Of a stretch of DNA of 64,000 nt, positions 1-62,644 are shown piece by piece (the stretch's first letter is position 1; every line of letters begins with the position of its first letter). Source of the stretch: an uncultured virus (IMG/VR IMGVR_UViG_3300032330_000970). Lineage: Duplodnaviria > Heunggongvirae > Uroviricota > Caudoviricetes. The DNA lies in IMG/VR virus record IMGVR_UViG_3300032330_000970; one strand, 5' to 3'. The notes under the pieces were generated by a model. That model had not been told where the DNA came from. It saw only the letters and a list, made by a program, of their open reading frames with translations, and ran no database searches. The position numbers and the translations under genes were made by a program.

Positions 1-426
1 CCCTTCTGGCTTAGACGTATTGGTGATATCCCAAAAAACTTTGCCCTCAACGCAAGTCGAGGCGGAGCGCACGATGAACTGATCGCCAAGCACGACCTTA
101 AGTATGCCGAGGTTGTGTTCAGTACCAAGGAAGCAGAGGACAAGAAGTTGGAGATCGACCACGACGACAGCCACGCCTACAAGTCTGGCAAGCCGTTCGC
201 CTTGCTCATCCACGGGACACAACCTGCGGGTAGCATCGCGGCCAAGGCATTATCTGCCCTTCGCAAGATTGGGTGGACTGGATATAGCAGAAAGACTGCT
301 GCTATCGCGGCGTTGTGTTTGGTCATGATGGACTCGATACCCGATAAGTACTGGCCCGTGTGGGCCAGGGTAGGGAACGACAACATCATATCCAGAGTGA
401 AAATCTTTGGCGAAAGGAACGTATGA
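1..426 (+). CDS. GP88-like phage protein, C-terminal part (5' truncated by window)
   Basis: Frame 1 is open from base 1: ..NFALNASRGGAHDELI..LEIDHDDSHA..FALLIHGTQPAGS, which resembles phage gene product 88-like proteins. Confidence 0.6.
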   Translation, partial: PFWLRRIGDIPKNFALNASRGGAHDELIAKHDLKYAEVVFSTKEAEDKKLEIDHDDSHAYKSGKPFALLIHGTQPAGSIAAKALSALRKIGWTGYSRKTAAIAALCLVMMDSIPDKYWPVWARVGNDNIISRVKIFGERNV

Positions 427-641
427 GTCTAATAAATAGAGCATCAGTTAAGCGGTCAGCTCTGGACATGGCGAGCGCCAAGTTCAAGGAGCGTAATAAG
501 ACGAGGATGGAAATGGGGCTTGCCCCTACGAAGTCTGCCCCGTCGAGAGTTAGTAGTGAATTCATCGATACCTTCGAAGCCAAGGTCATTGGCTTGTTGA
601 GTGTTATGGTTCACGAGCACAAGTCAGGAGCAACACTATGA
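423..641 (+). CDS. Small basic protein, candidate histone-fold (alpha3-less) DNA-binding protein
   Basis: ATG overlaps the upstream stop. LINRASVKR..RVSSEFIDTFEAKVIGLL..KSGATL follows the alpha1-L1-alpha2-L2 pattern of prokaryotic histones. Confidence 0.55.
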   Translation: MSLINRASVKRSALDMASAKFKERNKTRMEMGLAPTKSAPSRVSSEFIDTFEAKVIGLLSVMVHEHKSGATL

Positions 642-802
642 GTAAAACAAAAAAAATAACACCAAGGATGGTTGAAGATTGGTTAATAGAAATGGATGAT
701 GTCTATTACATTTTAGCCGATATAGCCAATGGAAAAATTAAACCATCAGAGTTAAAGTCAGACATTTCAATCTATATAGATAACGAAAGGAGCTCACGAT
801 GA
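638..802 (+). CDS. Hypothetical protein (54 aa, not in ORF track)
   Basis: MSKTKKITPRMVEDWL..ERSSR*; ATGA overlaps at both ends. Confidence 0.65.
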   Translation: MSKTKKITPRMVEDWLIEMDDVYYILADIANGKIKPSELKSDISIYIDNERSSR

Positions 803-1023
803 ATTGTTATTGTATTACAAAACCGACGGAACAAAAGTTTCTATCGATCGATGAAACGTGGGTGGACTTTATCACGGGTATCCGTAATGACTCCATCCGA
901 GGCTATACCTCTGAGGAGATGGAAGCCTTAAACAACGATGCAACGAAGCATGGAGGCGAGGTGCGACAGCATCCGTCTCCCGACGGAGTCACACTCCCCT
1001 TGTTTTATGACTGGGGTACGTGA
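799..1023 (+). CDS. Hypothetical protein
   Basis: AAGGAG RBS upstream; ATGA overlap. Confidence 0.7.
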   Translation: MNCYCITKPTEQKFLSIDETWVDFITGIRNDSIRGYTSEEMEALNNDATKHGGEVRQHPSPDGVTLPLFYDWGT

Positions 1024-1645
1024 AGTATTTGAGGGACTGAAGTCCCGAGAGGTCAGCCGTTACGTCAATTACTGGGACAAGATTAAGCCCAAGTCCCGTG
1101 AAGACGAATGGCGCTTCTGGATATTCTCGATTCTCGCAGCCAACTTCGGTTGGAAGCAGAACGTGAAAGCCTTTAATGCAATCAAGAATCGCGACTCGTG
1201 GAAGTCCGATCTCGGCAAGCTACAGTTCGAACTGTATCAAACCAAGACTGGACTGTGGCGGACCAAGGCCGTGAGCATCTGGAAGTTTGATCAGATGTTC
1301 GCTGCCAAGCCCCACATCTTCGAGCGTTATCCCAATGAGCCGTTGATGCAATACCGTGATCGGATTGCGGACAACGTGCCAGGATTGGCGATTGCTAAGT
1401 CAAGCTTCTATGTGGAGATGAAACATCACGAAGAGTCAAACGTTGTTTGCCTCGATCGTCGTGTGCTTAAGTCCATCCACAAGAGGGACAGAAACGTGAA
1501 CAGGACTGACTACCTCGCGCTTGAGAACGAGTGGCAGACCTGCTCAAAGGAATACGGTATCCCCGCGGCTACCGCCAGGTTCATCTGGTGGGACAAGTTA
1601 CAGGGGTATAAAAATAGTCGGTACTGGAGTGAGGTATTAGAATGA
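1007..1645 (+). CDS. HhH-GPD superfamily DNA glycosylase-like protein (Ogg2/N-glycosylase-lyase-like)
   Basis: RDRIADNVPGLAIAKSSF (helix-hairpin-helix), VVCLDRRVL (catalytic Asp position), YLALENEW. Confidence 0.7.
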   Translation: MTGVREVFEGLKSREVSRYVNYWDKIKPKSREDEWRFWIFSILAANFGWKQNVKAFNAIKNRDSWKSDLGKLQFELYQTKTGLWRTKAVSIWKFDQMFAAKPHIFERYPNEPLMQYRDRIADNVPGLAIAKSSFYVEMKHHEESNVVCLDRRVLKSIHKRDRNVNRTDYLALENEWQTCSKEYGIPAATARFIWWDKLQGYKNSRYWSEVLE

Positions 1646-1845
1646 AAAAAGTAAACGGTGAGATTCTTTGGGGCGCTGGCGACAGCATCCACAAGATCTC
1701 TTTTATTGCAGACGTGGACACAGCCAAGGAAAAGGTCGACAACCTTAAACTTGAACTGGACCCGCAGTTCCTTGATGACGTTCTTCAGAACGTGTACAAG
1801 GCGGGTGCAGACGAAGCCCTCCGATTGGCCGCTGTCCAAGGGTGA
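1642..1845 (+). CDS. Hypothetical protein
   Basis: GAGG RBS; ATGA overlap. Confidence 0.7.
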   Translation: MKKVNGEILWGAGDSIHKISFIADVDTAKEKVDNLKLELDPQFLDDVLQNVYKAGADEALRLAAVQG

Positions 1846-1871
1846 TAAAAAAACCACGTAAAGGAATACGT

Positions 1872-2003
1872 ATGTTGGAAATGATATTACTTTGTTTCCA
1901 ACTCGTAGGATTTATAGTTGTAACTTGGTCGGTCTATTCGGCCTTCTTAGGAACATACCATAACACCTGCGTCATGATTGAAAAGAAACTACTTGGGCGG
2001 TAA
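1872..2003 (+). CDS. Small membrane protein (43 aa, not in ORF track)
   Basis: AAAGGA RBS; MLEMILLCFQLVGFIVVTWSVYSAFLG is a hydrophobic helix. Confidence 0.55.
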   Translation: MLEMILLCFQLVGFIVVTWSVYSAFLGTYHNTCVMIEKKLLGR

Positions 2004-2004
2004 A

Positions 2005-2196
2005 TTAGAAATGCTCGCCTAACCACGTTTCAAAGTCATCCAATTTATTCCCGAGTTCCTCGGGGGTTATGATACCAAGAGAACAAGCACGAGCAAATTG
2101 CAAAATATCCGTGACTTGTTCTGGAAGTATCGCAAACTCCGGGGACTCGGGAATATTTTTTAGCACAGTTTCATCCTTCTTCCTATAAGTATACAT
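2005..2196 (-). CDS. Hypothetical protein
   Basis: 63-aa ORF filling the gap, convergent with the upstream gene. Confidence 0.5.
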   Translation of the reverse strand: MYTYRKKDETVLKNIPESPEFAILPEQVTDILQFARACSLGIITPEELGNKLDDFETWLGEHF

Positions 2197-5712: not shown

Positions 5713-6162
5713 TTACGGGAAGGTTAGCAGATATCGAAGTTGTTGTACATCCCCCAGGATGGTGTCGCGAATATTGAGAAGATCAGTATCCTTTGGATCG
5801 AGGCAAGTTGGCAACTCGTCTTGTAAAAAAGTGACAAACTTATCCACAAACTGTAATGGACTCCCGGAATAGTTATCAAGGTTGAGTACAAACTTACCGC
5901 TCGAAGCATAGATTCTTTGATACCGCCCCATATAAGACTCAATAAAATCATCCATGTTCTTTCCGAGAGATTCATAAATTTCTCCAAAGCTTTCGTGTTG
6001 AGCGAACGATTTGGTTTGCCAGTGAAAAATTTTAAATTGATTGTGAGCTGTCATTAAATTGGTTAGCAACATTTCTCCTTTGTCGGAACTTTTGGTCTCA
6101 AGGTCAGAACCTCTATTGCTTACCTGCATTTCCTTCAGATAATCTTGGAACTTGGCAGCCAT
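5713..6162 (-). CDS. Dps/ferritin-like protein (DUF5856-like)
   Basis: HNQFKIFHWQTKSFAQHESFGEIYESL..DDFIESYMG matches the Dps ferroxidase-type H..H..D..E pattern; DLLNIRD..YLL C-terminus. Confidence 0.8.
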   Translation of the reverse strand: MAAKFQDYLKEMQVSNRGSDLETKSSDKGEMLLTNLMTAHNQFKIFHWQTKSFAQHESFGEIYESLGKNMDDFIESYMGRYQRIYASSGKFVLNLDNYSGSPLQFVDKFVTFLQDELPTCLDPKDTDLLNIRDTILGDVQQLRYLLTFP

Positions 6163-6810: not shown

Positions 6811-7064
6811 AGAACTTTTCGAGCCCAGTAATTAGCTGACAGTTTGCCATCCCCTCCCTTAATACCACCACTCCTAGCGCAATAACTCTTTCGTCTTTTT
6901 GCGCTATGATGCTGAGTGAAATCTTTCATTGAGCTATCCCCAAAGTGAATGAGTTTTTCCTGCCCACCGGAACAAGCTTTGACTACCTTCTTCTTGCCCG
7001 GCCTCCACGATTTGCGTGGTTGATTGCAGGGCATGTCGGCTTTGCTGGGTTTACCTAATGGCAT
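6798..7064 (-). CDS. Basic protein, DUF5754-like
   Basis: KLIHFGD..DFTQH..RRKSYCAR..SANYWARKVLW. Confidence 0.7.
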   Translation of the reverse strand: MPLGKPSKADMPCNQPRKSWRPGKKKVVKACSGGQEKLIHFGDSSMKDFTQHHSAKRRKSYCARSGGIKGGDGKLSANYWARKVLWSC

Positions 7065-7612
7065 TATCTATCCTGTGTTTGTCCCATCCTCGAATCAATG
7101 ACGTCTGAATCTAGAATGGGTACTTTCTTCATAATAGTTTCCATATCCTTTGAAATTTTTTGTAAGTTGGAAGTATAGGGTTGAAGACTACCGGTAAAGT
7201 ATCCACCTTGTTTTAAGCCCGACGCATATCCCGCTACGTTTGTTGCCGACAAAGCGCCGTTATATCTCGGCATTTTAAGTTTCTTTGTCCAGTCTTCAAA
7301 GAACTGATTGGGGGTTTCGTAAGTCTTAAAAGGTTCTATGGCGGGCTCATTATTCTCACCTTCGGTGGTGGCCATCTTTACTTGCGCTTCTCCAACCTTG
7401 GCTTTGACTCCTCCCAGGTTACCGTATTTCTTGGCTAACTCAGACTCACCATATCCCGACTCTAAAGCTGTTTGGGCTAAAACCCATGAGGGGTCAATGC
7501 CCAAATCTGCCGCCGCTTTCATGGCTGGGGAAAACATTTTCTTAACATAGGCAATTTTTTTATCTGCCTGTGGACCCAATTGTTTTTTCCAATCTTGTGT
7601 TTCGTCAGCCAT
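7064..7612 (-). CDS. GH73 glucosaminidase/FlgJ-like peptidoglycan hydrolase (probably virion-associated)
   Basis: AQTALESGYG (catalytic Glu), NLGGVKA, TTE, FKTY, PRY, GGYFT motifs. Confidence 0.88.
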   Translation of the reverse strand: MADETQDWKKQLGPQADKKIAYVKKMFSPAMKAAADLGIDPSWVLAQTALESGYGESELAKKYGNLGGVKAKVGEAQVKMATTEGENNEPAIEPFKTYETPNQFFEDWTKKLKMPRYNGALSATNVAGYASGLKQGGYFTGSLQPYTSNLQKISKDMETIMKKVPILDSDVIDSRMGQTQDR

Positions 7613-7625
7613 GGATTTATCCTAA

Positions 7626-10600
7626 CTACTTTCTTTCCGGAAACAAGATACCTTCTTGATTTTTTTCGAGCAAAACTTGATACAGAATAGCTTTCTTAAT
7701 TGGATTAACAATCATTGGAACGATTGTCATAAACTCTGACCGCCCCATTTTTTCTAATTGAGGAATCCTTGCTCCAAGTTGTTGTTGGACAATTGGTCCA
7801 GCCCGTTGCATCCATTCATATTTTTCATCGGTTGTTAACTCGCGTTTGAGTTGAAAAAAATCGTCATAGGAAATTGGTTCTTTATTAGCCTGCTTTTGTG
7901 CAATCAATTCTTGCATAGCAAAATCTTTAAGAGTACCTGCATCCCAGCTTAACGAAAATCGATTGCTGGCAAACATGGAAATTAACTTGTCATGAATATC
8001 TTGTGGGGTTCGTTTGCCCTCGTCGTACCCAACTGAGTCCACGCCAGAAGTGGTAAGTCGGCGGACAAACGGAATAGTATTGGCTAACTGCGTTCTTACG
8101 TTACCCCCAAGAAAATCCAAATCCGGATTACCAACTTTAGACGCAAACGGAACCGATAAAGCAAAGGTTGAAAGGAAATTATTTTGATAAGGTCTAGCGC
8201 TTGGGGCTCCGGTAAATCCGTTCCAGACTTGCTCAACGTCGCGCAACGTAGCGTACCCCGGAATAAGACCCCCAACCACATTACCAAAGGTCTTGGTCAA
8301 GTTGGTCATAATACCCTTAGCATCTTTTGTTCCAGGTCCAGGCGACGTTAACGACATGATCTGACGAATTCCGGACAAGGCGGCCATATCCATAATTCCA
8401 TACATTGCCAACGCTCCACCGGTAATTGCACCGTTGATGATAGCTTCTGACTTAGAACGTTTGTCGTAGCGAACTGATTCTGCGATTGCTCCTGCGAGAA
8501 TCAGAGGCCCGGAAATACCTACAGGGAAACCTTCAAAGCTGAAGAACTGAGGTGATCCATCTTTGAATCTTCCCACCTGGATGGAGCGAAGCTTTCCACC
8601 AGCAGCAAAGAAAGCTTCACGCTGGGCTGGATCATTAGGTCCTTTAAAGTGAATCATGAAGTAAGGATCATCTTCGCCACCCATAGCTTCCTTGAGTCCA
8701 TAGATCAAAGATGCTGTAAGGATGTATCCAAGCGTCATCTTTCCTACGAGAAGATCATGTTCGACCGTTCCAGGAACGGCTGGAGGACGATAGTATTTAG
8801 TATCCTTCAACATAGCTGCTGACCCACGATACAACCGAACAGTGGAAGTTACTGGCATAAAGTTAAGAACTTCGTTGGCCAAACTAGAACCTGTTTTCAA
8901 AAACTTAATGACCAACCGCAAAGGCCAAGCTTTAGAGGACATCGCTGTCAGACCGTCGGCAAGCAGACCAAACCAGCCTTCAAAATTATTTGTGTAAGTA
9001 GATTGAGCCGCAAAGGTCTTAGCTTTTTCAGCTAGGTTCTTTACCTCTTCCTCGTCTGGTCTTCCTTGTTCTAGAATCTCTTCGACTCTCAAAGATTCCT
9101 GATCGGGCGTGAGATTAAATTCTTTAGCTTCAGCTGCGGCTTTTGCTTCTGCTCTAACGCGAGCCTCGGGAGATTGGTTCAACAACCGAGCAACTTCTAG
9201 CTCAATTTCCTCCTGACTCTTCAGTCCTTTCTCAATAGCAATATTTGTAGCCTCGGCAATTTCGTACATTTTCTTTGAAGAAATTTTATTTATAGCGTCA
9301 CCAGCTGCCATGGAACGCCCAAAGAAAATGAAGGGAGCCAAGGCTCCATATTTACTGCTGATGAATTTGGAATCCAGCGGGATACGATATTCTTGTCCCA
9401 GGATATTGACTGGCAGTTCGGGTTTGACAGCTCCAGGTTTATTTGCACGATAAGCTTCAGCTTGAGATACAATCGCCTCCCATGTACTTACTCCTCTTTG
9501 ATCACTTGCAAGTACATCTTGAACTGTCGAATAATCACCTTCAAAAAAGATATTGGACGCCGCTTTTAAAGCTGGTTTCTCCCCAACAAAAATAGCAAAG
9601 TTCAAAGCTTTAGCTGCGTCGATATAGGCTTTAGATCTGGCCTTATCCCCAACCATTCCTTTTACAAACCCAACGCTTCCAAGGATTGCCGCGTTTAGTT
9701 CATTGCTTGCCGTAGCTGCCCAGGCATTGATTCCAATCGTTCCAATTCCCGACAACAAATTGGATGTTTGATAGTTCACTAGCAACTCTCCCCACACTTG
9801 AGGTGATACTAATTTTACATACTCGTACATCTTGGAAATTTCTTTATTACGAATCATTCCGACGGGATAAATAGGAAGATCTTCAATCATCTTATTTAGT
9901 TTGTTGCGCTCTGCTTCAGTCAGTTCAGGTAAACCAAGTTGCGACCGCATTTGCATAAACACTTCGCTATCGCTCAACACGCCAAGGTTTGTTGCCTCAA
10001 TAAGTTTGTCCAGAGCTGACCGCATTTTGCGAGTCTTACGTTCTTTCTTCTTCTCAAATTTTTTCTTTATATTTTCAAGTTCTTTCTTTCTCTCTTCGGC
10101 AATAAGTTCAGTCATGCCGTCGCGAAGGAAGTCAAGAACTTCTTTCTTTTGGGCTTCGTCAAGATTGGTATTTTGAGTAAGCAAAGCTCCCATTTTATTT
10201 TCAAAGTCCATGATATCACCACGGCTGGAACGAATTAGGCTACGAATATTTGTTTGCGGGCCCCCAATAGATTCCAACGAACGGACAGCTTGCTTCAAGC
10301 TGGACACGGCAAAGGGTCGGCCAAAAGCTTCCTCAATGAAAGGCTCAAGCCCAATCAACTCTTCTTCCTTATAGTTGTTGCGGAGCGAATCGCGGACATT
10401 GCTAATGAACTCCTGAACGTCAGGATACTTGGCAATACGATCCTTTAAAACTTCAGCTTCTGTCGGTTTGGGTTCCGGTTCAAACGCGGGCTGTAGTCCG
10501 CCCATTTCCTTGGTGCGTTGGGCAATCAATCTGCGGATGCGAGCTGCAAATTCTTCGAGCGCATCCTTTACCTTGGGTTCTTGTTGAAGACGGGCGGCTT

Positions 10601-13600
10601 GTTTTTGAAGCGCATCTGCGGATGCTTCGGCAAGCTCGGCTAATTTAGAAGGAGCATCTGACGGAATGATTACCGGAGCTTGTTGGGCTGCTCTTGCTTT
10701 TGCCCGAGCTGCTCTTTCAATTGCCTCGCCTCGTGTCGCTGGCGGAGCTACAACTTCTTCTTCTACGCCAGTCTCTCTAGCCCGTGCTGCCCGCAATGCT
10801 CTCGCTCCATACGATTCAAGGGCGTACGTGAGTGAAGCGTCAAAATAAAGTTCGACCTTTCGCCTAACGTTGTCCTGGTTTTTGGCGTCACGCAAGGCGG
10901 GAACTAACATGACTAACCGTTTGATCTCATCAGCGGAAGCAGCAGTCTCGCGGGGATTTTCGGAACGCTGAATGAGCTCAAGAATAATACGTCCCAATGC
11001 CCGAGTCTGTTTAGGATCAAGGCGAATATCATCTGCTTCGCCCCCACCAACTTCGGGTGCGGCCGTAAGATCGGCTCCGAGGAATTCTGCGCCATCTTTG
11101 TTAGCGTCTTCACTGGCAAGATAGTCAGCGAGCACAGCTTGAATCTGGGAAACAGTTCCACCTTTTTTATTTAGGTCGACCAACTTGCCGAGTTGATCCA
11201 AAGTCTTCTGCATCTTTTTGCTAGTAGTAATTTTTTCAGCCGCCCTCCGACCTGCGTCAACCAGACCGGATGCAATTTCATTTTCTTCAGGCTTGTAAGC
11301 TACAAGACGATCTTTGATTGCACTGTCAATTTGTTTACCAACATACATTTTCATGGCCTCTGGGTTGGCCGACAACTCACCAAGTGCATTCCATAAATCA
11401 ACGGTACGTCCCGGTTCGGTTCCGTACTTCTTGCTTAGCAAAAGCATTACTTCGGCCAACTGTTCGCGAGCAAATCTATCGGTCTTGGCTTTTTCACCTA
11501 GACCCTTGGCCAACTCAAATCCAATTGCACCTTGCAAGGGAAGCGAAGATTTAATATTCCCGCCCAAGAAAGCATTAAGTGTATTATCAAATCCGTAAGT
11601 GCCGATGTATTGACGCGCATCCTCAAACTGTTGTTCGCGAGGGACGGACATATAATACCAAGCATCCAGTAACTTATCTTTAGTCTTTCCCTCGGGGAGT
11701 GAATCCGCAAATTTAGTTACAATATTTTTTACGGCTTGGCTTTCGCGAAGCTCAGGAGCTGCGGTTAAACGACGAGCATAGTTGTCATATCCAGCTCTAC
11801 CAATAGCGGCAATTAAAGCGCCACGATTACTGTAAGTATAATTCCTTCCGTCAAAAATAATTTCGTTACGATCCTCAAACATTTTAGCAATTGTGTTGGC
11901 TACAGCTCCGGCCGCAGTCTTAGCTGTTGTGGGATAGGACGGATAAAATCCAATCTTTACGTTGTACTTCCCATACTCGGAAGGTTCGGTCAAATTCACT
12001 GGCTCAGTCGTGGCCACAAAAGCTGCGACCGGCAACGACTCACCCGACTCTTCCATACCTTCGGCAATCTCAAGGGCTTTGTTGGCAATACCTGGAAGGC
12101 TTGCCCGGCCACCATCCATGACGGACTTAGTCGCGGCCCTGAACAAATTGCGCTCTTGATTTGTGATCATCCCGCGACGAACTGCAACATCCAAACCATC
12201 GAGCCAATCGTTTACGTCAACCGTCTTGAATAGATCGTCAGCCGCGGTAACTCCAAATACGCCGTCAGTTCTGCCTTCAAGATGGTTCTCAATCATGCGA
12301 TAGATTCGAAGATCGTAGGAGTCAAATTTATTGGATGGTCGGGGAGACGTTGGGGAGCGACCAGGCTCGGGAGCCGGTACGGGTCCGGGTTTTGATTCGT
12401 CCATGAAATATTTAGAAGTCTTACGAAGATTAGAAATGGCATCTTCGATTCCTTGACGCAACACTAAGCGATCCGTGGCTTGAGGAGCCAAGCCCAACCC
12501 ACGTTTCACCACAGTGGCCATACTATCAAACCACACGCCAAGTCTGGCTAGAACGGACTTGGGTTCTTGACCAACAAGATCTTTCAGGCGTTGTGTCGCC
12601 CTGGCAATATCTTTTGGATCTACTGAAGTAACTTGTTCGGTAATACCACCTGTAAGATTTAGCTGCGATAATTGTCGGATACCTTCCATGGCAACCTGGT
12701 AAGAATCATTGGCCAAAGCTTTTATTTTTCCTTGAATAACGGGATCGGTAATGTCAGAACCAAGTTGAGAATTATAAAGTCTGGCAATACCTAATCGAGT
12801 TGCTTGGCTCATACCATCACCAATTGCCGTTACTTCTTCAACTGGATTTAATCCAAGTTCACGGAAATAACGGTAAGTTTCTATGTGGATTGTTTCCTCC
12901 AACATAACCTTTGTAAGATAGGATTTAAAATCTTTTTCGGGCACGCGTGATTTACTGACAGCCAATTTTTCGGGGTTAATAATAATTGTGTCGGATTCAT
13001 TATCGGTTCCAGCTTGAGCCGCTACGCTATGCTCCGCCGTGGGAGATACAAAAACATTGTAAGTACGAGATTGACCTTTGGCGTCTTTAAAGGTGACTGT
13101 ATTGTCTTTGTAGTTAGCCCCAAGAACGGAGGTTAGTTCCGTGTCTACAAACTTTTGTTGTTGGGTTGACGCTTCGTTTGTTTCCTTAATTGGAGCTACA
13201 ACTTCTTCAGCCCGGAGACCTTCGAATCCCGCACCAACGGTAGCGTCCAGCAAACGCAACTTGGCTCGCATACGGCCTATGGTATTTTGGTCAATCTCGG
13301 CCTGTGATTCGAGGAATACAATGTTGGGACGGCTAGCGCTGTCCACACGCCAGACACGATAGATAAGCTGAACCGCTTGAATTGCGCTAATCGGAGGAGA
13401 TAAAACAATCATCTCTCTGGACTCGTCACCAAACTTGTCATCCAGTTCAATTCCAGTTCCACCCATTTCCTTGGTTGCAATTAGAACATCGGCCTCACCT
13501 TCGTTAAAGGAAGCCATCGCTTGTTCCTTCGTCTGTTCAGAACCAGTATACATCCGGGCGATCTTGAGAGTCGGGTCAAGCTTAATGATTGCAGCTTCGA

Positions 13601-16600
13601 GTGACGCGGAAGTAGGATTAACTGTTTCGCCTTTGGAGTTTTCATCCGAAACAAATCCAACATAAAGGACAGGTTTCTTGCCACGCTTAATAGCATCTAC
13701 TGCTCGTTTAGCGGCTGCGTCAACTTTGTATTCTTCGAGCGCACGTTTTTGGGCTGCTGCCATTTTGCGTAAAGCCGAGATGTCCACGTTTTGAGTTCCG
13801 CCATACATCGCCTTGATGTTCTCGAGCTGTTGTTTAATCTGGTTATCGAGAGGAACATCCTGAAACTCTACTTCAACGCCATCCAGTTTGAGCGAACGAG
13901 AACGCATGATCCCGTTTTTTGCCATTCCATCAAGATAAGTTTCTAACCGATCTTGCATTTCGGTCTCGGTAACTCCTTGGGCCAACTGCCAATAGAATTT
14001 TTTTCCACCACGAAGAGCATATTTTTGAAAACCCAAACGGCTAAACAATGCGTCAGGGGATTCATTATCAAAGATGCCAAGACGTCCGAGAGAAAGAAGT
14101 TGGTCGGGAGTTTCAAACGGAGTGCCTGAAGCCATCAATGTGCGACCGGCTTTGTTGGCGATATCATCCATCAATATTGCCCACGACCGGGTCTTTCCGC
14201 CTTGAATAGCTTTAGATAAGTTACGGCCAGAATGCTGTTCGTCTAAAAGAACTACAGTCTTGTCATCAATTAACGGCAAAAGTTTTTCGAGGTATATGGA
14301 ATTGTATGTAGTGACTAACATGCGACCCGGAACAAATTCAATTGGCAATCCCTTTCCGTTCTCACCTTTGCCACCACGAACTGCTAGCGGAACGCCAAGA
14401 ATCGCCGCATCTTTCTGAATTGATCCACCAATTTCCCCATAGTCCCAGTTTGGCGTGACGGCATCGGGGGCCGTTATATAAACAACCTTATACTCTTTGT
14501 TGAGGTAATAAGCTCCAGTGCCAAGCAACACTCGCGTCTTTCCAGTTCCCGGTCCGTTCGCCAAGTAGAACGCTTTGTGCTTAGAGTTTTCGATTGTAGT
14601 GACAGCCGCGGCCACATCTTGAGTCTGTTCTTTGGACAAGTTGGAGAGAACTTGTTGCCCCGCGGGAGCAAGAATCTTTTCGTCGAAAGGTTTGCCTAAC
14701 TGGTTACGGGGCTCGACGAAGGACTTGGGGATTGGGGTGCCACGAGGGCGCTCAACTCCAGGTCTCCCGATTCCGGCTGGCGGACGCTCAACAGGTCGTT
14801 CCACTTCTTTCCGCTGCGCGGGAACGGCTTTTTCAGGAACTCGCTTTGCGGTGGTAGCGCGTTTTGCTTCGAGTTCGGCAAGCTTTGCGCTAGCTTCCTG
14901 ACGTCGATCAGCGGTCGTCTTGGCTTCAAGTTTTGGTGTGGTTGGTTGTTCGGGTTGTTCATAGGTTCCTTCCTTGTTCATGGTTAATCCGCTGTCGCGC
15001 AGGATTTGGTCGCTGACGCGAAGCAAGTTTGACCGGAAAGCGGCCGCAATTTTATTTTTGGCGTCTCCCTCCGGCATGCTTTCCGAAGCCAAATAGGGCT
15101 CGGCAAGTTTGTTTAATGTGGCAACATAGGCATCAGCTTGTTTCTGTGAAATAGTTCCGTCCTCGGTAGATTGCCGAAGATTGGTATCAATCGCTTCAGT
15201 AAGTTCCGTAATAGATTCCGGAGTTAATTTAGAAGTAGCTACGTTTTCAATAAAGGTATCAAATGATTTCAGTAGATCGCCTGATCGGGACGATTGAACT
15301 TCGCCAAGCAAAGTCTTGGCTGCGACTAACTCGGCATCATCAAAGAAATTATCCGCTTGCAACTGGCGGAACCGGTCAACATAAGGCTTGATCTGGTTGG
15401 CCGTAAGGCTACCTTCGCGTACAACGCCGGCTGGTTCCTCAACAGCTCGAACCGGTAGTGTCCCAGCTCGTTGATTATTTCGATAATTGTTTTCCAAGCC
15501 CTGAACAAACTTAGTTCTGACCGCGGGTTGAAGAGCGTTGATGTTGTCAATTGTTGTTCCGATCTTGGCCGCTTCCGAAGCCACGTTCTTTACATCTCCA
15601 ACAACGGCATCAAACGCCAACTTTTCGGCATCCGTGGCCAAAGAATCGCGAAAGGGTTGCTTAAAGTTTTCCGCAAGGATAGCTAATGCTTCCTGCCTTT
15701 GAGCTGCGGAAGGAACTTCGACTTGTCCTTGGATTTGAAAATCTGTTTCAGTCGCGTCGATCTGGTCGAGTGTCTCGTTAATTGCGCCGGCGACCGCTGG
15801 GTTAAGCCCTTGTTCTTCAGCCAGAGTTTCAGCGTCTACAGCTTGAGTGCGAAGGCCGGGAGTTTCCATGCTTACCGCCGCGCCAATTCCAACACCAGCC
15901 CGCATGCGGGGAACGGCTTGACGAATAAAATCGCGTAAGCGACTATTAAAAATTGTACTTAAGGAAAGATTCTTTTTACCTTGACGAAGCTCATATAAAA
16001 ATGAATTGATCGTCCCCATTGAGACTTCATCTGCAATGTTGTACGTTTGATAACCGGCCAAAGACTTGCTTTGAAGATAAGCATTCTTGCGTTTAATATA
16101 AGCCATCAAAGTCTCAGCGGGAGTCATTGTGTTGCGACCATTTTCATCAATCGCACCAAGACTCTGAAGTAGCTCAACCGTTGATGGATTCTTTAAATTA
16201 AATACGTCGCCAAGAGCATTTACATCGTTCTCTCTAGGATCAGGAGCCAGCTTCTGAAATTTCTGATACGATGCTTGTTCGGGATTGTTGATGGCAAGAA
16301 TAACGTCAGGACGAGCTTCTAATTCAGGAGCAATCGTTCCACCTTTGATAGCTGCATTTGTCTCGCGCTCAAACTGCCCCACCAAACTTGCAACACTTTG
16401 CTCACCTCGAGTGCCACGTTCCATTTCGCCCTGACCTTGCATGGCTTGCAACTTGGCAAGCTGTTCTTCGAGAGCCGGAGTTTCTTCCAAAGGAGACTGC
16501 CTGATCTTAGTCTGCAAAGCCGTGATCTGATCGGCAATCTTTTTAGCCCTGAACTCGGCGGGTCTTTCCTCGGCAACCAATTCTTGCTGTTGGGCAAGAC

Positions 16601-18713
16601 GAGTTTCCAGTGCAGTTTGAATTTGACTTGGTCCAAGATGTTTCGAAGCAATAGCCTCAATCTCTGGCATCGATCCAGCTGTATCCAATAGATCGCTGAT
16701 CTGGTCAACTTCGTTTTGGGTTATACCAGGTTTACTTTCAATTTCTTGCAAGATTGCGTCCTTCTCATCCTGCATGATTTCCGCTGGATCTTCTTTACCA
16801 AGCCAATTCCCCTCGTTATCCTTGACTCCTAAAACTTGATACCGTGACCCGTCTTCACTGAGTTTTCCGTAAACGCGACCCTGACTTTCAAGCCAATCAA
16901 TTTTGGCTTGATTGTTTGGGGTCGAAGAAAGATCAACCGAAGTTCCTCCTTTTTGAAATACATTTACTAATTCATTAAGGGCGCCAAGAGCTTCCTCGTC
17001 AGTTGCGGGAACTCCGGCCTCCATAGTTGGTGGCACTCCCATCTGAGTAGGTTGTACCTGAGCCTGGGCTTCGGCTACTTTACTTAAAAGCAAAGATTCA
17101 ATTGCTCCTTGTTTTGAGTTGTTAATTGCTTCGTCAGCTACAGCGGTAGTTTCAGGAGCAGTTGTTGGATCAAGAGAGGCGCGAACATTAACAGCATCAA
17201 AAAGAGCTTGAGCTTCGGGGCTATTTAAAGAATCGCGCAGTTCAACAATCTGTTGCATTTTCTGCTCTTCTGGAATCTTGGGATCATTCTTAATTCCAGT
17301 AACTGTTTGACGGAGCGTATCTGCAAATTTGTCATTGGCCATTTGATTAAGTCTAGCTCTCCGCCCAACAAATCCTTCGGCCAAAACCATGCCAAGACCA
17401 ATACCCCCGGAAGCAGCTAGGCTTTGTGGAATCTGAGCAATAGGATCTTGCCCGCGGGCAATCGCGTCAATTACATCGGATGAAGTTTCTCCAAGAGTTG
17501 TTCCAATTAATTTTGCAGTACCTTGAACAACTGGAGCAAACATGGGTAACTTGGTTTCCAGAGCCTTAGCCACCATATGATTGGCCAAAGCATGATCGGC
17601 AACATCTTCCAATTTATTGCCAGCTTCTTCGGATAAAGCTAAAACTCCAGCTTCGCTTACAATCGAGGCCAGCCGTTGCCCAACACTTAAGTTACGCGGA
17701 TCTTGATCGAGGGATTGAGAAGCGCCAACAACCGCGTAAGTTGCGCCCTTTGACAGGGTAGTTGGAACTTTAATTGTCTGACCTGCAATATCCGCAGCCT
17801 TGCCAAGCAGACCTGTGGCCCCCGCTCCAACTGCCATGAACTGACCCAAAGATCCGGTAGCCAATCCGGCCAAAGTGGACGGCATGTAATCTTTTTGAAT
17901 TACGTCGTTGATTCCGTTGGTAAGAGCGGCACGACGGGCCACTTGGTCAGGATTATTTTCATCGACAATAATATCTCCAATAGATACAAATGGAACAAAG
18001 GCATCCCCAGATTGAATTGCAAAGTTTCGAAGTCCCGCGGTTCCAAGTTTCTTTGTTTTGTCGCTCTGAAGATCTTTATAATATTCCTGTGCTCGGGCCA
18101 AATTCATTCCAACTTTTGGGGTATTCCATGCCCCAACCCCAAACTCCATTGCTGGAGCTTGGTCCTTGGGGGCAATAGACTTCCCCGCCGTTAACTCATC
18201 GGAGTAAAGAGTTCCAAGTTCAAGTGCTTTAGCAGCTTGGGTCGGATCTTTAATTGTTCCAATGTAATTGCGGGACGCCAAACTTTCCTGCATCGCTCTG
18301 GCATCTTCATTAGTAATTCCAAGCCCAGTTTGCAAATAAGATCCAATAACTTTACCCACACCTCCAACGGCAATTTTGGTAAGGCCCAACCAGTCATTGT
18401 TCTTTTCCGCGTCAAGGGTAGCTTGAGATGTGGATGTTATGTAATCATTGACATTCTGTTGAGCATCCTGCCATGACTGCGTATTAAAAGGTAGTTTTCC
18501 TTCTTTGAAGCGAGTAGCCGTACCAAGCAAAAGATCATTGGCTTTCGGGTTATCCCGAAGTTCCATAAGGTGGCCCGCTTGAGCCAAAGCCGACGAAGGC
18601 TGGCTTAATACGGAATCAAGTTCGTCTTGTTGTTGAACGGGAGTTTGTCCAAGAATATCCCCGACAATGCTATCGAGTGAACTGGCATCCATAGAAGAAA
18701 AGGGGTCTGCCAT
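7626..18713 (-). CDS. Giant (3695 aa) polyvalent internal virion/ejection protein: Strawberry-notch-like SF2 helicase, zincin-like domain, possible sigma-like module
   Basis: GPGTGKT, TTY, DEQH, SGT, GGTGIEL and QLIYRVWR helicase motifs (~aa 1365-1830); LEETIH zincin-like motif (~aa 1940); follows two ejection-type genes. Confidence 0.85.
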   Translation of the reverse strand: MADPFSSMDASSLDSIVGDILGQTPVQQQDELDSVLSQPSSALAQAGHLMELRDNPKANDLLLGTATRFKEGKLPFNTQSWQDAQQNVNDYITSTSQATLDAEKNNDWLGLTKIAVGGVGKVIGSYLQTGLGITNEDARAMQESLASRNYIGTIKDPTQAAKALELGTLYSDELTAGKSIAPKDQAPAMEFGVGAWNTPKVGMNLARAQEYYKDLQSDKTKKLGTAGLRNFAIQSGDAFVPFVSIGDIIVDENNPDQVARRAALTNGINDVIQKDYMPSTLAGLATGSLGQFMAVGAGATGLLGKAADIAGQTIKVPTTLSKGATYAVVGASQSLDQDPRNLSVGQRLASIVSEAGVLALSEEAGNKLEDVADHALANHMVAKALETKLPMFAPVVQGTAKLIGTTLGETSSDVIDAIARGQDPIAQIPQSLAASGGIGLGMVLAEGFVGRRARLNQMANDKFADTLRQTVTGIKNDPKIPEEQKMQQIVELRDSLNSPEAQALFDAVNVRASLDPTTAPETTAVADEAINNSKQGAIESLLLSKVAEAQAQVQPTQMGVPPTMEAGVPATDEEALGALNELVNVFQKGGTSVDLSSTPNNQAKIDWLESQGRVYGKLSEDGSRYQVLGVKDNEGNWLGKEDPAEIMQDEKDAILQEIESKPGITQNEVDQISDLLDTAGSMPEIEAIASKHLGPSQIQTALETRLAQQQELVAEERPAEFRAKKIADQITALQTKIRQSPLEETPALEEQLAKLQAMQGQGEMERGTRGEQSVASLVGQFERETNAAIKGGTIAPELEARPDVILAINNPEQASYQKFQKLAPDPRENDVNALGDVFNLKNPSTVELLQSLGAIDENGRNTMTPAETLMAYIKRKNAYLQSKSLAGYQTYNIADEVSMGTINSFLYELRQGKKNLSLSTIFNSRLRDFIRQAVPRMRAGVGIGAAVSMETPGLRTQAVDAETLAEEQGLNPAVAGAINETLDQIDATETDFQIQGQVEVPSAAQRQEALAILAENFKQPFRDSLATDAEKLAFDAVVGDVKNVASEAAKIGTTIDNINALQPAVRTKFVQGLENNYRNNQRAGTLPVRAVEEPAGVVREGSLTANQIKPYVDRFRQLQADNFFDDAELVAAKTLLGEVQSSRSGDLLKSFDTFIENVATSKLTPESITELTEAIDTNLRQSTEDGTISQKQADAYVATLNKLAEPYLASESMPEGDAKNKIAAAFRSNLLRVSDQILRDSGLTMNKEGTYEQPEQPTTPKLEAKTTADRRQEASAKLAELEAKRATTAKRVPEKAVPAQRKEVERPVERPPAGIGRPGVERPRGTPIPKSFVEPRNQLGKPFDEKILAPAGQQVLSNLSKEQTQDVAAAVTTIENSKHKAFYLANGPGTGKTRVLLGTGAYYLNKEYKVVYITAPDAVTPNWDYGEIGGSIQKDAAILGVPLAVRGGKGENGKGLPIEFVPGRMLVTTYNSIYLEKLLPLIDDKTVVLLDEQHSGRNLSKAIQGGKTRSWAILMDDIANKAGRTLMASGTPFETPDQLLSLGRLGIFDNESPDALFSRLGFQKYALRGGKKFYWQLAQGVTETEMQDRLETYLDGMAKNGIMRSRSLKLDGVEVEFQDVPLDNQIKQQLENIKAMYGGTQNVDISALRKMAAAQKRALEEYKVDAAAKRAVDAIKRGKKPVLYVGFVSDENSKGETVNPTSASLEAAIIKLDPTLKIARMYTGSEQTKEQAMASFNEGEADVLIATKEMGGTGIELDDKFGDESREMIVLSPPISAIQAVQLIYRVWRVDSASRPNIVFLESQAEIDQNTIGRMRAKLRLLDATVGAGFEGLRAEEVVAPIKETNEASTQQQKFVDTELTSVLGANYKDNTVTFKDAKGQSRTYNVFVSPTAEHSVAAQAGTDNESDTIIINPEKLAVSKSRVPEKDFKSYLTKVMLEETIHIETYRYFRELGLNPVEEVTAIGDGMSQATRLGIARLYNSQLGSDITDPVIQGKIKALANDSYQVAMEGIRQLSQLNLTGGITEQVTSVDPKDIARATQRLKDLVGQEPKSVLARLGVWFDSMATVVKRGLGLAPQATDRLVLRQGIEDAISNLRKTSKYFMDESKPGPVPAPEPGRSPTSPRPSNKFDSYDLRIYRMIENHLEGRTDGVFGVTAADDLFKTVDVNDWLDGLDVAVRRGMITNQERNLFRAATKSVMDGGRASLPGIANKALEIAEGMEESGESLPVAAFVATTEPVNLTEPSEYGKYNVKIGFYPSYPTTAKTAAGAVANTIAKMFEDRNEIIFDGRNYTYSNRGALIAAIGRAGYDNYARRLTAAPELRESQAVKNIVTKFADSLPEGKTKDKLLDAWYYMSVPREQQFEDARQYIGTYGFDNTLNAFLGGNIKSSLPLQGAIGFELAKGLGEKAKTDRFAREQLAEVMLLLSKKYGTEPGRTVDLWNALGELSANPEAMKMYVGKQIDSAIKDRLVAYKPEENEIASGLVDAGRRAAEKITTSKKMQKTLDQLGKLVDLNKKGGTVSQIQAVLADYLASEDANKDGAEFLGADLTAAPEVGGGEADDIRLDPKQTRALGRIILELIQRSENPRETAASADEIKRLVMLVPALRDAKNQDNVRRKVELYFDASLTYALESYGARALRAARARETGVEEEVVAPPATRGEAIERAARAKARAAQQAPVIIPSDAPSKLAELAEASADALQKQAARLQQEPKVKDALEEFAARIRRLIAQRTKEMGGLQPAFEPEPKPTEAEVLKDRIAKYPDVQEFISNVRDSLRNNYKEEELIGLEPFIEEAFGRPFAVSSLKQAVRSLESIGGPQTNIRSLIRSSRGDIMDFENKMGALLTQNTNLDEAQKKEVLDFLRDGMTELIAEERKKELENIKKKFEKKKERKTRKMRSALDKLIEATNLGVLSDSEVFMQMRSQLGLPELTEAERNKLNKMIEDLPIYPVGMIRNKEISKMYEYVKLVSPQVWGELLVNYQTSNLLSGIGTIGINAWAATASNELNAAILGSVGFVKGMVGDKARSKAYIDAAKALNFAIFVGEKPALKAASNIFFEGDYSTVQDVLASDQRGVSTWEAIVSQAEAYRANKPGAVKPELPVNILGQEYRIPLDSKFISSKYGALAPFIFFGRSMAAGDAINKISSKKMYEIAEATNIAIEKGLKSQEEIELEVARLLNQSPEARVRAEAKAAAEAKEFNLTPDQESLRVEEILEQGRPDEEEVKNLAEKAKTFAAQSTYTNNFEGWFGLLADGLTAMSSKAWPLRLVIKFLKTGSSLANEVLNFMPVTSTVRLYRGSAAMLKDTKYYRPPAVPGTVEHDLLVGKMTLGYILTASLIYGLKEAMGGEDDPYFMIHFKGPNDPAQREAFFAAGGKLRSIQVGRFKDGSPQFFSFEGFPVGISGPLILAGAIAESVRYDKRSKSEAIINGAITGGALAMYGIMDMAALSGIRQIMSLTSPGPGTKDAKGIMTNLTKTFGNVVGGLIPGYATLRDVEQVWNGFTGAPSARPYQNNFLSTFALSVPFASKVGNPDLDFLGGNVRTQLANTIPFVRRLTTSGVDSVGYDEGKRTPQDIHDKLISMFASNRFSLSWDAGTLKDFAMQELIAQKQANKEPISYDDFFQLKRELTTDEKYEWMQRAGPIVQQQLGARIPQLEKMGRSEFMTIVPMIVNPIKKAILYQVLLEKNQEGILFPERK

Positions 18714-53058: not shown

Positions 53059-53472
53059 ATGAACATTCGTATCATAGCCATGGCTATATCCATGCTTCTA
53101 TCGTTCCCTATTGTCGCGTCAAACGTGATAATCGAACCGGAACCAAAATCCAAACCTTCGAAGAAACTCAAGGTTCGGGTTACAGCTTATTGGTGTGGTC
53201 AAGACCCGGACACATCCAGATTTAGATCCTCAACGGGCTATACCTTGAAGTCAGGTAGGTCGTGTGCGGTTGATCCCAGGATCATTCCGTATGGGAGTAC
53301 TGTGGTTATCGACGGCAAGGAGTTTAAAGCCATCGACACGGGTACGGATGTGATCAGAAAAAAAGCTTCCCACGGAAAACTTCCGGTAGTAGACTTATTT
53401 TACAAAACGGAAAAGCAAGCCATGGTAGCACTGGATAATCTGCCTATGCATCCATGGGTTGAAATACGATAA
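53059..53472 (+). CDS. 3D-domain (MltA-like) cell-wall protein with signal peptide
   Basis: VTAY..AVDPRIIPYGS..AIDTG..VVDLF (three Asp). Confidence 0.85.
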   Translation: MNIRIIAMAISMLLSFPIVASNVIIEPEPKSKPSKKLKVRVTAYWCGQDPDTSRFRSSTGYTLKSGRSCAVDPRIIPYGSTVVIDGKEFKAIDTGTDVIRKKASHGKLPVVDLFYKTEKQAMVALDNLPMHPWVEIR

Positions 53473-53481
53473 GGAGCACAC

Positions 53482-53697
53482 ATGAAAAAGACACCCAAAC
53501 CCGAAACGCTGGGGACAATTAAAATCCTGGCCGAACGTCAACTCCAATATGTTGAAATGGATTTAGACGTTGATGGAAACACATTCAACAAAATTGCCAA
53601 GGCTGGGCTGATTGAAATCAAGCGTGATAAAAAAGCGTTGTTCAATTATGCAATCACCAAGGCACTGGAAGAATTAAGTGCAAGAGAGCGTAATTAA
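53482..53697 (+). CDS. Hypothetical protein
   Basis: AAGGAG RBS. Confidence 0.7.
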   Translation: MKKTPKPETLGTIKILAERQLQYVEMDLDVDGNTFNKIAKAGLIEIKRDKKALFNYAITKALEELSARERN

Positions 53698-54687
53698 ATG
53701 TTTAGCATCAGCTTTGGCGGCCTTACTGGGTTTGGCCGTATGTGTATTTTTAACCGCCATCTACATGCAAGTTCGTTGTTGGCTGCGGCGCTGGTTTTAA
53801 TCCCGCTTTCGGCAAAAGGAACAGACTTTAGTCACCCATGCGAACTGAGCATGAAGTCTGTAGTTCGTGTGTTCCAGAATGAAAAGGACACAAACAAGAT
53901 CACGTTTGGAACCGGCACAATCATTGGAAGGGATGGAACTATCCTGACATGCGCCCACGTAGTTGATGGGACTGGCAAGATTGATGTAATGTTTGGTGAC
54001 GGTCTTACCAACGCAGTTTATAGTGCCAAGGTAATTCAATCCGACGCGAAGTTGGATTTGGCTCTACTGAAACTTGAGGGATGTCCGGAACATTTGCGGC
54101 CGATGCCACTATCCAAAATGCCAACGCCTCCGCGGGGAACTCCAGTAGTGGCAATTGGTTCACCGCTTAAGATATTCCGAACGGCAACCCAAGGCATCGT
54201 TAGTTATGCAGGTCCGGATGAAGGCCAAGATATCCTGGTGTTTGACGCCAGGGTCATGCCAGGATGCTCAGGAGGGCCCGTAATAGACGAATCTGGCGAC
54301 CTTATAGGCATTGTGACGGGTGATCTAGGCAGAGACACTCATAGGCTTGCTAGGGCCGTTTACTTGACAGAAATCGAAAAGTTCTTGGCAAACGTATCGT
54401 CCAACGCTCCCCAACGGGGGTTTCTTGGGATTGACACAACTCCGGTAGGTACGGGGATTGCGGGTCCTGGAATGTCAGAAGGTCTGAAGGTTACCAATAT
54501 GTCTGCCATAGATGAGCTTCTTCCGGGAGACGTAATCATGACTTTCAATGATTACCAAGCAACTAACCATAAAGACCTAGTTAGGATGGTTCGTAAATGT
54601 ACACCAGGAGACCGAGTTGAGGTAGGCATTTTACGTAATGGTGAGTTCAAACTTATACACATGATTATTAAGGAGTTGCGGAAATGA
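53698..54687 (+). CDS. HtrA/DegP-family serine protease with PDZ domain
   Basis: LTCAHVV, DLALLK, PGCSGGP catalytic triad; GFLGI and LLPGDVI PDZ motifs; start uncertain. Confidence 0.88.
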   Translation: MFSISFGGLTGFGRMCIFNRHLHASSLLAAALVLIPLSAKGTDFSHPCELSMKSVVRVFQNEKDTNKITFGTGTIIGRDGTILTCAHVVDGTGKIDVMFGDGLTNAVYSAKVIQSDAKLDLALLKLEGCPEHLRPMPLSKMPTPPRGTPVVAIGSPLKIFRTATQGIVSYAGPDEGQDILVFDARVMPGCSGGPVIDESGDLIGIVTGDLGRDTHRLARAVYLTEIEKFLANVSSNAPQRGFLGIDTTPVGTGIAGPGMSEGLKVTNMSAIDELLPGDVIMTFNDYQATNHKDLVRMVRKCTPGDRVEVGILRNGEFKLIHMIIKELRK

Positions 54688-62442: not shown

Positions 62443-62644
62443 GGCTGTAAAGATTGCAAACGAGATAACAAAGTGGGATGGCTACGCTTTGTTTGACAAA
62501 GACAATGTATTACTCAACGACCAGTTATTCACACACTACGAACGGGCGCAGAAGATTGCCGCCTGTTACGAGAATGGTGAAGCCATCATCTGGAAAGTTG
62601 AACTGAACAGAAAGGAAAAAGTCAATGATAATTACGTCATCTAG
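62435..62644 (+). CDS. Hypothetical protein
   Basis: GTG start overlapping the previous gene. Confidence 0.55.
   Translation: MSEAVKIANEITKWDGYALFDKDNVLLNDQLFTHYERAQKIAACYENGEAIIWKVELNRKEKVNDNYVI

Follow-up and report, generated by a model that had tools for sequence, protein, structure and literature searches.

A phage gene family for probable two-helix histone-fold proteins without alpha3 or the RD clamp

The locus and its genomic setting

The DNA analysed here, referred to below as the window, is a 64,000-nucleotide stretch of an uncultured virus record (IMG/VR IMGVR_UViG_3300032330_000970) that comprises 64,406 bases and is 91% complete. Since its genes include those for terminase, tail, endolysin, helicase and family A polymerase, the source is a tailed phage. 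The gene of interest and its surroundings are arranged as follows.

1..426 (+): GP88-family gene, its 5' part outside the record (PF17338, E 1.6e-6; full gene in relative L002, E 3e-39)
413..418 (+): Shine-Dalgarno-like AAAGGA (AGGA at 415-418), with a function presumed from sequence
423..641 (+): gene for P0001, a probable two-helix histone-fold protein (open reading frame, 80 homologues, purifying selection, profile matches to the histone HTkC, AF2 model)
638..802 (+): 54-aa downstream gene, separate from the histone-fold gene
938..1645 (+): Ogg-HhH glycosylase-like gene, start uncertain (PF22175, E 1.1e-8)
1..2138 (no strand): right part of a CCGG-free gene block, from CCGG counts, holding the P0001 gene
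56977..64000 (no strand): left part of the CCGG-free block, with the rIIA start at 62625, lying ~2.5 kb upstream of window base 1 in relatives

The open reading frame at 423-641 (+) encodes 72 aa, MSLINRASVKRSALDMA...RVSSEFIDTFEAKVIGLLSVMVHEHKSGATL*, and the translation is identical to that in the first-pass annotation, in which a model, working from the letters alone, had described a basic protein at this position. The protein carries 12 K+R against 7 D+E residues and has a pI of 10.1. P0001 is a real gene under purifying selection: all of the candidate homologues (80/80) were homologous, with 68-96% identity and in most cases a length of 72 aa, and dN/dS against the loci of 24 relatives was 0.03-0.24 in 14 comparisons, with dN = 0 in 2 and saturated dS in 8. 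A longer start at GTG 360 was rejected, as most homologues are 72 aa long. The Shine-Dalgarno-like word is located 4 nt 5' of the ATG, within the 3' end of the upstream GP88 gene, and the P0001 gene forms an ATGA overlap with each of its two neighbours. Scanning for promoters returned 3 sites, against an expectation of 3.3. In 4/4 freshwater or lake-water metatranscriptome runs, contigs of relatives (mostly 90-99% alike) span the gene partly or fully, a coverage to which DNA carry-over may contribute.

The gene lies in a co-oriented block that spans both ends of the record; BLAST comparison with relatives L001-L003 shows ~2.5 kb missing between the two parts. The block holds rIIA, the GP88 gene and the Ogg-HhH gene, and in relatives rIIB as well. 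Across the block (56977-64406 plus 1-2138), CCGG occurs 0 times versus 23.8 expected, compared with 180 versus 204.7 in the rest of the genome, and CATG (9 versus 36.7), GTAC (9 versus 23.1) and GATC (29 versus 57.2) are also depleted there, while the rest of the genome retains these words. This would fit an early region exposed to restriction, and in this clade the block looks like one that avoids it. Early expression, which the first-pass annotation had proposed, gains indirect backing from this CCGG-free setting with rIIA, but a comparable context (0-1 CCGG upstream of the gene) is found in only 7 of the 24 relatives, and most of L013-L024 have no such gap. Because so few relatives are depleted, the loss of CCGG is a trait of the clade and not a property of the gene.

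Several other features were observed in this genome and its relatives. Two Ogg-HhH copies are present in relative L014 (one region L014:7155-8804), and no GGATC/GATCC occurs over ~10 kb in L031-L035, which belong to the alpha2-duplicated relatives described below. A DUF5856 gene at 5713-6162 (-), which we take to be Dps/ferritin-like, has its match in phrog_858 ('starvation-inducible transcriptional regulator'), with a weak one in a DNA-binding PHROG; it is possibly a second DNA-protecting gene. An ORF of 3,695 aa at 7626-18713 (-), with helicase-like motifs in mid-protein, adjoins the glucosaminidase gene at 7064-7612 and probably encodes an injected virion protein. At 53059-54687 (+), a 3D-domain protein and a trypsin-PDZ (HtrA-like) protease are encoded amid replication genes.

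A family of short basic proteins and its histone kinship

No match to P0001 was found in Pfam, PHROGs or a single-sequence search of the PDB, nor did tblastn with P0001 and the short form P0091 detect any match in 50,697 GenBank phage records. A profile search of 1.84 billion representatives yielded 12 matches, among them insert-free forms of 57-61 aa and a tandem doublet of 130 aa, and a short-form profile recovered at least 338 clusters at E<=0.001 (best 120 of 338 listed). Full-length homology between the P0001 insert clade and the short forms is shown by hhalign (probability 99.0, E 7.5e-18). The family occurs in the following forms.

Short form, 57-63 aa
Insert form, 72 aa (P0001)
~85-aa form, with an insert other than that of the P0001 clade
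~100-aa form, alpha2-duplicated
Tandem doublet

The proteins used for family counts number 241 and range from 31 to 149 aa; their pI is at least 9 in 240 of them. In the ~100-aa forms mid-alpha2 is present twice, the second match being significant in 8/9 examined, and the relatives P0168, P0199, L029:5001 and L031-L036 show the order alpha1-L1-alpha2(first part)-linker-alpha2(last part)-L2. P0092 is the 130-aa tandem doublet of the two-helix unit. In a tree of 72 sequences, 14 of the 17 rows labelled as the 72-aa insert form, including P0001, cluster at 99 within the short forms; this is a quick, unrooted version with 45 of 69 inner branches open, from which the direction of change is not readable.

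Short forms are present in a 1.9-Mb contig of a Verrucomicrobiae bin and in a contig of a Planctomycetaceae bin, both found by exact words of one short form (2 matches, uninformative on rarity), and a Verrucomicrobia bin is the listed source of one 72-aa form. A 179-kb phage carries a short form adjoining DUF2997. The neighbours of short forms include RadC/JAB, DUF2997, AAA ATPase and WGR/ATP-dependent ligase genes (L038:2658-9782, L039:996-6991, L025:5795-6186), in mobile-element-like clusters that come from the Verrucomicrobiae and Planctomycetaceae bins and the 179-kb phage. Given that short forms reside in such chromosomal clusters and that CCGG depletion is limited to 7/24 relatives, a role tied to the entry of phage DNA is not general.

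Published systems are compared here on the basis of the accessible portions of Schwab 2024 (PMC11390915), Liu 2025 (PMC13681535), PMC11317129 and PMC12701072. The sole significant PDB sequence match of the family profiles is HTkC, a face-to-face alpha3 histone of Thermococcus kodakarensis (9F2C; PMC11390915). With the insert-clade profile alone, HTkC is the sole PDB row, at E 0.58; with three wider family profiles it was found at E 2.6e-5 (sole PDB match at E<=10), E 4.5e-5 (best of 6, next 0.6) and E 1e-5 (HTkC residues 1-46, best of 5, next 0.15). The last of these matches is colinear across 46/59 HTkC residues, and the alpha1 start, the RVS in L1 and alpha2 are in register. Histone Pfams gave no score in 65 + 11 family members, with none at E<=10 for PF00808 (CBFD_NFYB_HMF), and the nearest named clusters in ESM Atlas bear PF00808 (0.85-0.86), as leads only. 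For DUF1931 (PF09123), to which a likeness had been suggested, there is no match in the same 65 + 11 members, the closest solved relative is the face-to-face HTkC, and DUF1931 is a pseudodimer with two histone folds per chain (PMC12701072), whereas P0001 is a single fold of 72 aa.

AF2 models of P0001 (pLDDT 92) and the short form P0091 (pLDDT 94) each consist of two helices, at residues 6-30 and 45-65 and at residues 6-20 and 30-49, respectively. In both, alpha2 is 20-21 residues long, shorter than nucleosomal, as in the description of alpha3 histones, and the spacing from RVS to the glycine of L2 is 27-28 in 205/208 counted proteins, near that of HTkC. Foldseek gave no match at E<=0.001 in the PDB or a viral library for either model; among the rows listed, none of them significant, histone, nucleosome or TFIID entries make up 44/46 for the P0091 model and 2/17 for the P0001 model. 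In VIA, 11 of 50 rows for the P0001 model fall below 3 A rmsd, and 11/11 are histone, nucleosome or TFIID/TAF entries, at Z values (3.9-5.0 overall, 4.1-5.0 for rows below 3 A) that lie below the level the tool regards as meaningful for helical models. The rows include HTkC (Z 4.9, 1.7 A, 51 residues aligned, 28% identity), HLp (Z 4.4, 1.8 A, 49 residues) and HBb (Z 4.2, 2.2 A, 49 residues).

TAF4 and TAF13 head the VIA rows, and TAFs, whose histone folds serve as protein scaffolds, make up several of the best structural matches. Human TAF4 of the TAF4-TAF12 pair (1H3O) aligns over 49/49 residues at 1.9 A and represents a two-helix histone-fold piece that still dimerises, its alpha3 being presumably absent from that structure; as part of a eukaryotic heterodimer in TFIID with 10% identity, it offers a structural precedent only.

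These comparisons bear out the proposed histone-fold kinship, and we regard homology of the P0001 family to the histone fold as very probable, with a predicted alpha1-L1-alpha2-L2 geometry for P0001. Alternatively, the family might have no kinship with histones and be a basic helix-loop-helix that converged on this fold, as the missing Pfam histone match and the weak structural scores would allow; we give this hardly any credence in view of the colinear HTkC profile match at E 1e-5, with RVS and alpha2 in register, and of the histone fold in every low-rmsd match. The family is thus best described as one of probable histone-fold proteins, which, judged from sequence and models, may work like histones.

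The shortened C-terminus and the basic insert

The predicted elements of P0001 map to the window as follows.

438..512 (+): predicted extended alpha1, residues 6-30 (AF2 helix 6-30 versus 6-20 in P0091)
474..545 (+): clade-specific basic insert, residues 18-41 (alignment A1, spacing counts)
546..554 (+): L1 motif R42-V43-S44 (RVS in 211/241 family proteins; aligns with the RVS of HTkC)
555..617 (+): predicted helix alpha2, residues 45-65, the likely dimerisation helix (AF2; covariation)
627..641 (+): L2 motif G69-A70-T71-L72 and stop; the bases GGAGCAACACTATGA double as the start region of the next gene, with its ATG and a Shine-Dalgarno-like GGAG

The first-pass annotation had noted an extended alpha1/L1 with an insert of ~22 aa. 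The extension is supported by the predicted helices and by the spacing from the N-terminus to RVS (37 versus 21-23 in short forms). The insert is equally real, but its size needs qualification: the stretch from ...LDMA to RVS comprises 24 residues (18-41); HTkC lacks a counterpart for ~21 of them (51/72 residues of P0001 aligned), the short forms for ~15. Relative to the short form, the insert gives alpha1 ~10 further residues and introduces a loop of 14 residues, and its residues K22, R24, N25, T27, R28, M31, P35 and P40 are invariant in 65/65 aligned insert-clade sequences.

At the other end, 236 of the 241 proteins stop no more than five residues past G-x-T (one residue in 114, two in 81, three in 31); the other five comprise one truncated copy, three divergent ends and one 15-residue tail. 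P0001 stops one residue past T71 and has no third helix alpha3, in line with the earlier description, and a C-terminal alpha-helical tetramerisation domain is found in none of the 241 proteins of 31-149 aa. L72 aligns structurally with residue 54 of HTkC and with residue 58 of HLp, a face-to-face histone of Leptospira perolatii (9QT0; PMC12701072), in which T56 and V58 of L2 meet L1 of the other chain and R55-D62 forms the clamp. Counted back from L72, G69 occupies the position of the clamp arginine and is invariant in alignments A1 (65), A3 (89) and A5 (103), and the position of the clamp aspartate lies past the P0001 stop; among the 241 proteins, a D five residues after T occurs only in P0138 and P0139, both without the clamp R. 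Neither the RxTxxxxD clamp motif of face-to-face histones nor the RKTxxxD motif of bacterial dimer histones is present, P0001 ending in G-A-T-L-stop and the short forms in G-K-T-x-K-stop. Since the chain ends after G-x-T and a glycine replaces the clamp arginine, alpha3 and both clamp partners have been lost together, and the reported lack of an RD clamp is therefore upheld. The chain appears to end at the last residue needed for L1-L2' pairing.

Three other accounts of this ending were considered and rejected. A split histone was suggested by the next ORF, which starts ...KKITPRMV and is L2/alpha3-like, yet it lies behind the gene in only 5/24 relatives, other genes taking its place in the remaining loci. 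Stop readthrough supplying alpha3 is contradicted by a second in-frame stop four codons on. Retention of G-x-T-L solely as the ribosome site of the next gene does not agree with the short forms, which keep G-x-T without the ATGA overlap; in the insert clade this overlap is present at the gene end in 22/24 loci. The GGAG-N7-ATGA junction (window 627-641; L004, L006-L016, L019-L024) precedes a wide variety of genes in relatives and also closes a different gene in L010 and L011; small gene modules may be exchanged at this point.

The L2 motif of known histones, given as G.KT[VL] in the first-pass annotation, has its counterpart here in G-x-T-L, but the lysine is missing from the G-A-T-L of P0001; A, V, L or M stands in its place across the insert clade, while the short forms have it as consensus. 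The corresponding lysine of HBb, K52, contacts DNA (PMC11317129). Its loss would suit a protein that keeps the handshake fold and acts through protein contacts, for example in early counter-defence, with DNA binding incidental or lost, and the gene is grouped with rIIA/rIIB and many small unknown genes. This explanation is nevertheless highly improbable, given that the basic charge is kept in 240/241 proteins and that 65/65 insert-clade sequences keep R42 (L1) and T71 (L2).

Unlike HTkC, P0001 is phage-encoded, lacks the RxTxxxxD clamp and alpha3 and is 21 residues longer in alpha1/L1; the residues described for the tetramer of face-to-face histones lie in, or need, the end that P0001 has lost. 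HLp wraps ~60 bp as a tetramer via R49, N53, R55, T61 and F63 (PMC12701072), and the part of HLp beyond residue 58 has no counterpart in P0001. HBb (Bd0055 of Bdellovibrio bacteriovorus, 8CMP; PMC11317129) resembles P0001 as a small, basic, single-fold protein and provides a model of a DNA-bending dimer, but it retains one alpha3 turn, the R51-D58 clamp and the K52-T53 motif, whereas P0001 has neither alpha3 nor the clamp and carries another residue in place of the K.

Among viral proteins, the phage histones of Schwab 2024 (A0A2E7QIQ9) and VTTHFP, one of the six viral histone-fold types of Liu 2025, are Caudoviricetes-encoded and without RxTxxxD, like the P0001 family, and show by eye a similar alpha1 and an R-[IVL]-S / K-T-[LM] layout (PMC11390915, PMC13681535). 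They run on into a C-terminal tetramerisation helix, whereas proteins of the P0001 family terminate after L2 and are longer in alpha1-L1. VHHHFP (Liu 2025, PMC13681535), described as an alpha3 histone fold with a short loop behind it, comprises small Caudoviricetes histone folds that likewise have no such helix, but all its alignment rows (114 lines, by eye) extend past the L2 motif K-R-[LIV], and its L1 is mostly Q-x-x rather than R-V-S. Alpha3 histones, for their part, are defined by a truncated alpha3 of 3-4 residues (Schwab 2024, PMC11390915). Because each published category has a defining feature that was checked and found lacking here, the P0001 family lies outside all of them.

In the accessible portions of the two published phage-histone catalogues (Schwab 2024, Liu 2025), the family was not found: the accession A0A0F9XIG5 (one UniProt-type id) does not appear in the Schwab 2024 source data (PMC11390915), and 0/7 family contig ids appear in mmc5 of Liu 2025 (PMC13681535), while a control id was found in each. 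No description of an alpha3-less phage histone was found in the literature, although the supplements of both studies could still list members, and family members could be hidden in the bacterial-like set of Liu 2025 (PMC13681535).

Predicted dimer, mode of action and significance

Mean-field coupling analysis of anchored blocks covered 214/246 proteins, the 32 left out being fragments, long forms and regex misses. T50-M62 ranks first among the coupled pairs in the full set as well as in the short forms (z 5.1 and 5.6); the two residues are located 12 positions apart in one helix, and the pair is most simply read as a putative contact between the antiparallel alpha2 helices of two chains. L72 couples with F47, P40, A13 and A17, all of which in the monomer sit at the opposite end of alpha2. 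Handshake-class pairs, in classes drawn after the top pairs had been seen, account for 11/20 top pairs in the set of 100 short forms, where simulation on the tree gave a mean of 2.35 and in 0/60 runs reached this number, and for 9/20 in the full set versus a null of 3.95 (0/40), at an effective depth of 65-96 and with a site-independent model on the tree as the null. The maximum coupling z was matched in 2/60 and 7/40 simulations, and the alpha2-alpha2 class alone is not enriched in the full set (9/40 simulations reached it). Taken with homology, this covariation is suggestive of an antiparallel handshake dimer in the P0001 family. The alpha2-duplicated forms and the doublet would fit this geometry as single-chain half and whole dimers, respectively: the ~100-aa relatives may be half-dimers with one L1-L2 site, and P0092 is a possible pseudodimer.

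The reading that we favour, at slightly better than even odds (about 0.55), is that P0001 pairs into a handshake homodimer with non-specific DNA-binding and DNA-bending activity, whose target early in infection is probably the DNA of the phage itself. Two alpha2 helices would cross antiparallel in a head-to-tail arrangement, bringing L1 (R42-V43-S44) of each chain into pairing with L2 (G69-x-T71-L72) of its partner. DNA would be contacted through the L1-L2' ends and alpha1 and bent without sequence preference, as in HBb; K22, R24, K26 and R28 of the insert would add phosphate contacts beside L1, and the insert may compensate for the L2 lysine lost in this clade. Assembly would stop at the dimer, as in HBb, and not proceed to a tetramer of the HTkC/HLp type, because without alpha3 and the clamp the alpha3 half of the face-to-face interface is missing.

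Since face-to-face tetramers need the alpha2 end, L2 and alpha3 (PMC12701072), the protein could also be directed at the host, either as a heterodimer with a host alpha3 histone that blocks the host tetramer or by coating host DNA and disturbing the nucleoid. Relatives occur in Verrucomicrobiae and Planctomycetaceae bins, and Planctomycetota are among the phyla with bacterial-dimer histones (PMC11390915); however, bacterial histones are reported in <2% of genomes (PMC12701072), and covariation inside the family points to self-pairing, both of which make host targeting distinctly unlikely. Less doubtful, but still unlikely in our estimation, is a histone-fold regulator of transcription or recombination that, like TAF/NF-Y histone folds, occupies few sites or bends the DNA on behalf of a partner, without coating it. 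The TAF4 and TAF13 rows at the top of the structural search, the eight insert positions invariant in 65/65 sequences, which would suit a specific contact, and the short forms within RadC/DUF2997/AAA/ligase clusters all speak for it, whereas the sequence kinship is to HTkC and not to TAFs, HBb binds genome-wide without specificity (PMC11317129), and the insert is missing from most of the family.

Beyond non-specific binding and bending by a homodimer, a broader and rather speculative proposal, which we consider doubtful, is that the family constitutes a separate sixth class of prokaryotic single-fold histones and the smallest working one (alpha1-L1-alpha2-L2). It would have been spread by phages and mobile elements of Verrucomicrobia/Planctomycetes-type hosts and would coat first-expressed or incoming DNA against restriction and DNA-sensing defences, with the footprint tuned by basic inserts and by single-chain alpha2-duplicated versions.

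Phage histone folds are already in print; what is new, as far as found, is a variant that lacks both alpha3 and the clamp. In the accessible literature, single-fold phage histones have been catalogued by computer, and no bench test of them was found. Published prokaryotic histones keep at least one alpha3 turn and nearly all keep the RD clamp, and hundreds of natural proteins that have lost both together, yet remain under strong selection, would therefore provide a test of the minimum that the histone fold requires for dimerising and DNA binding. As a protein of 58 or 72 aa is easy to make, the use of histones by phages for organising or protecting DNA would become directly testable.
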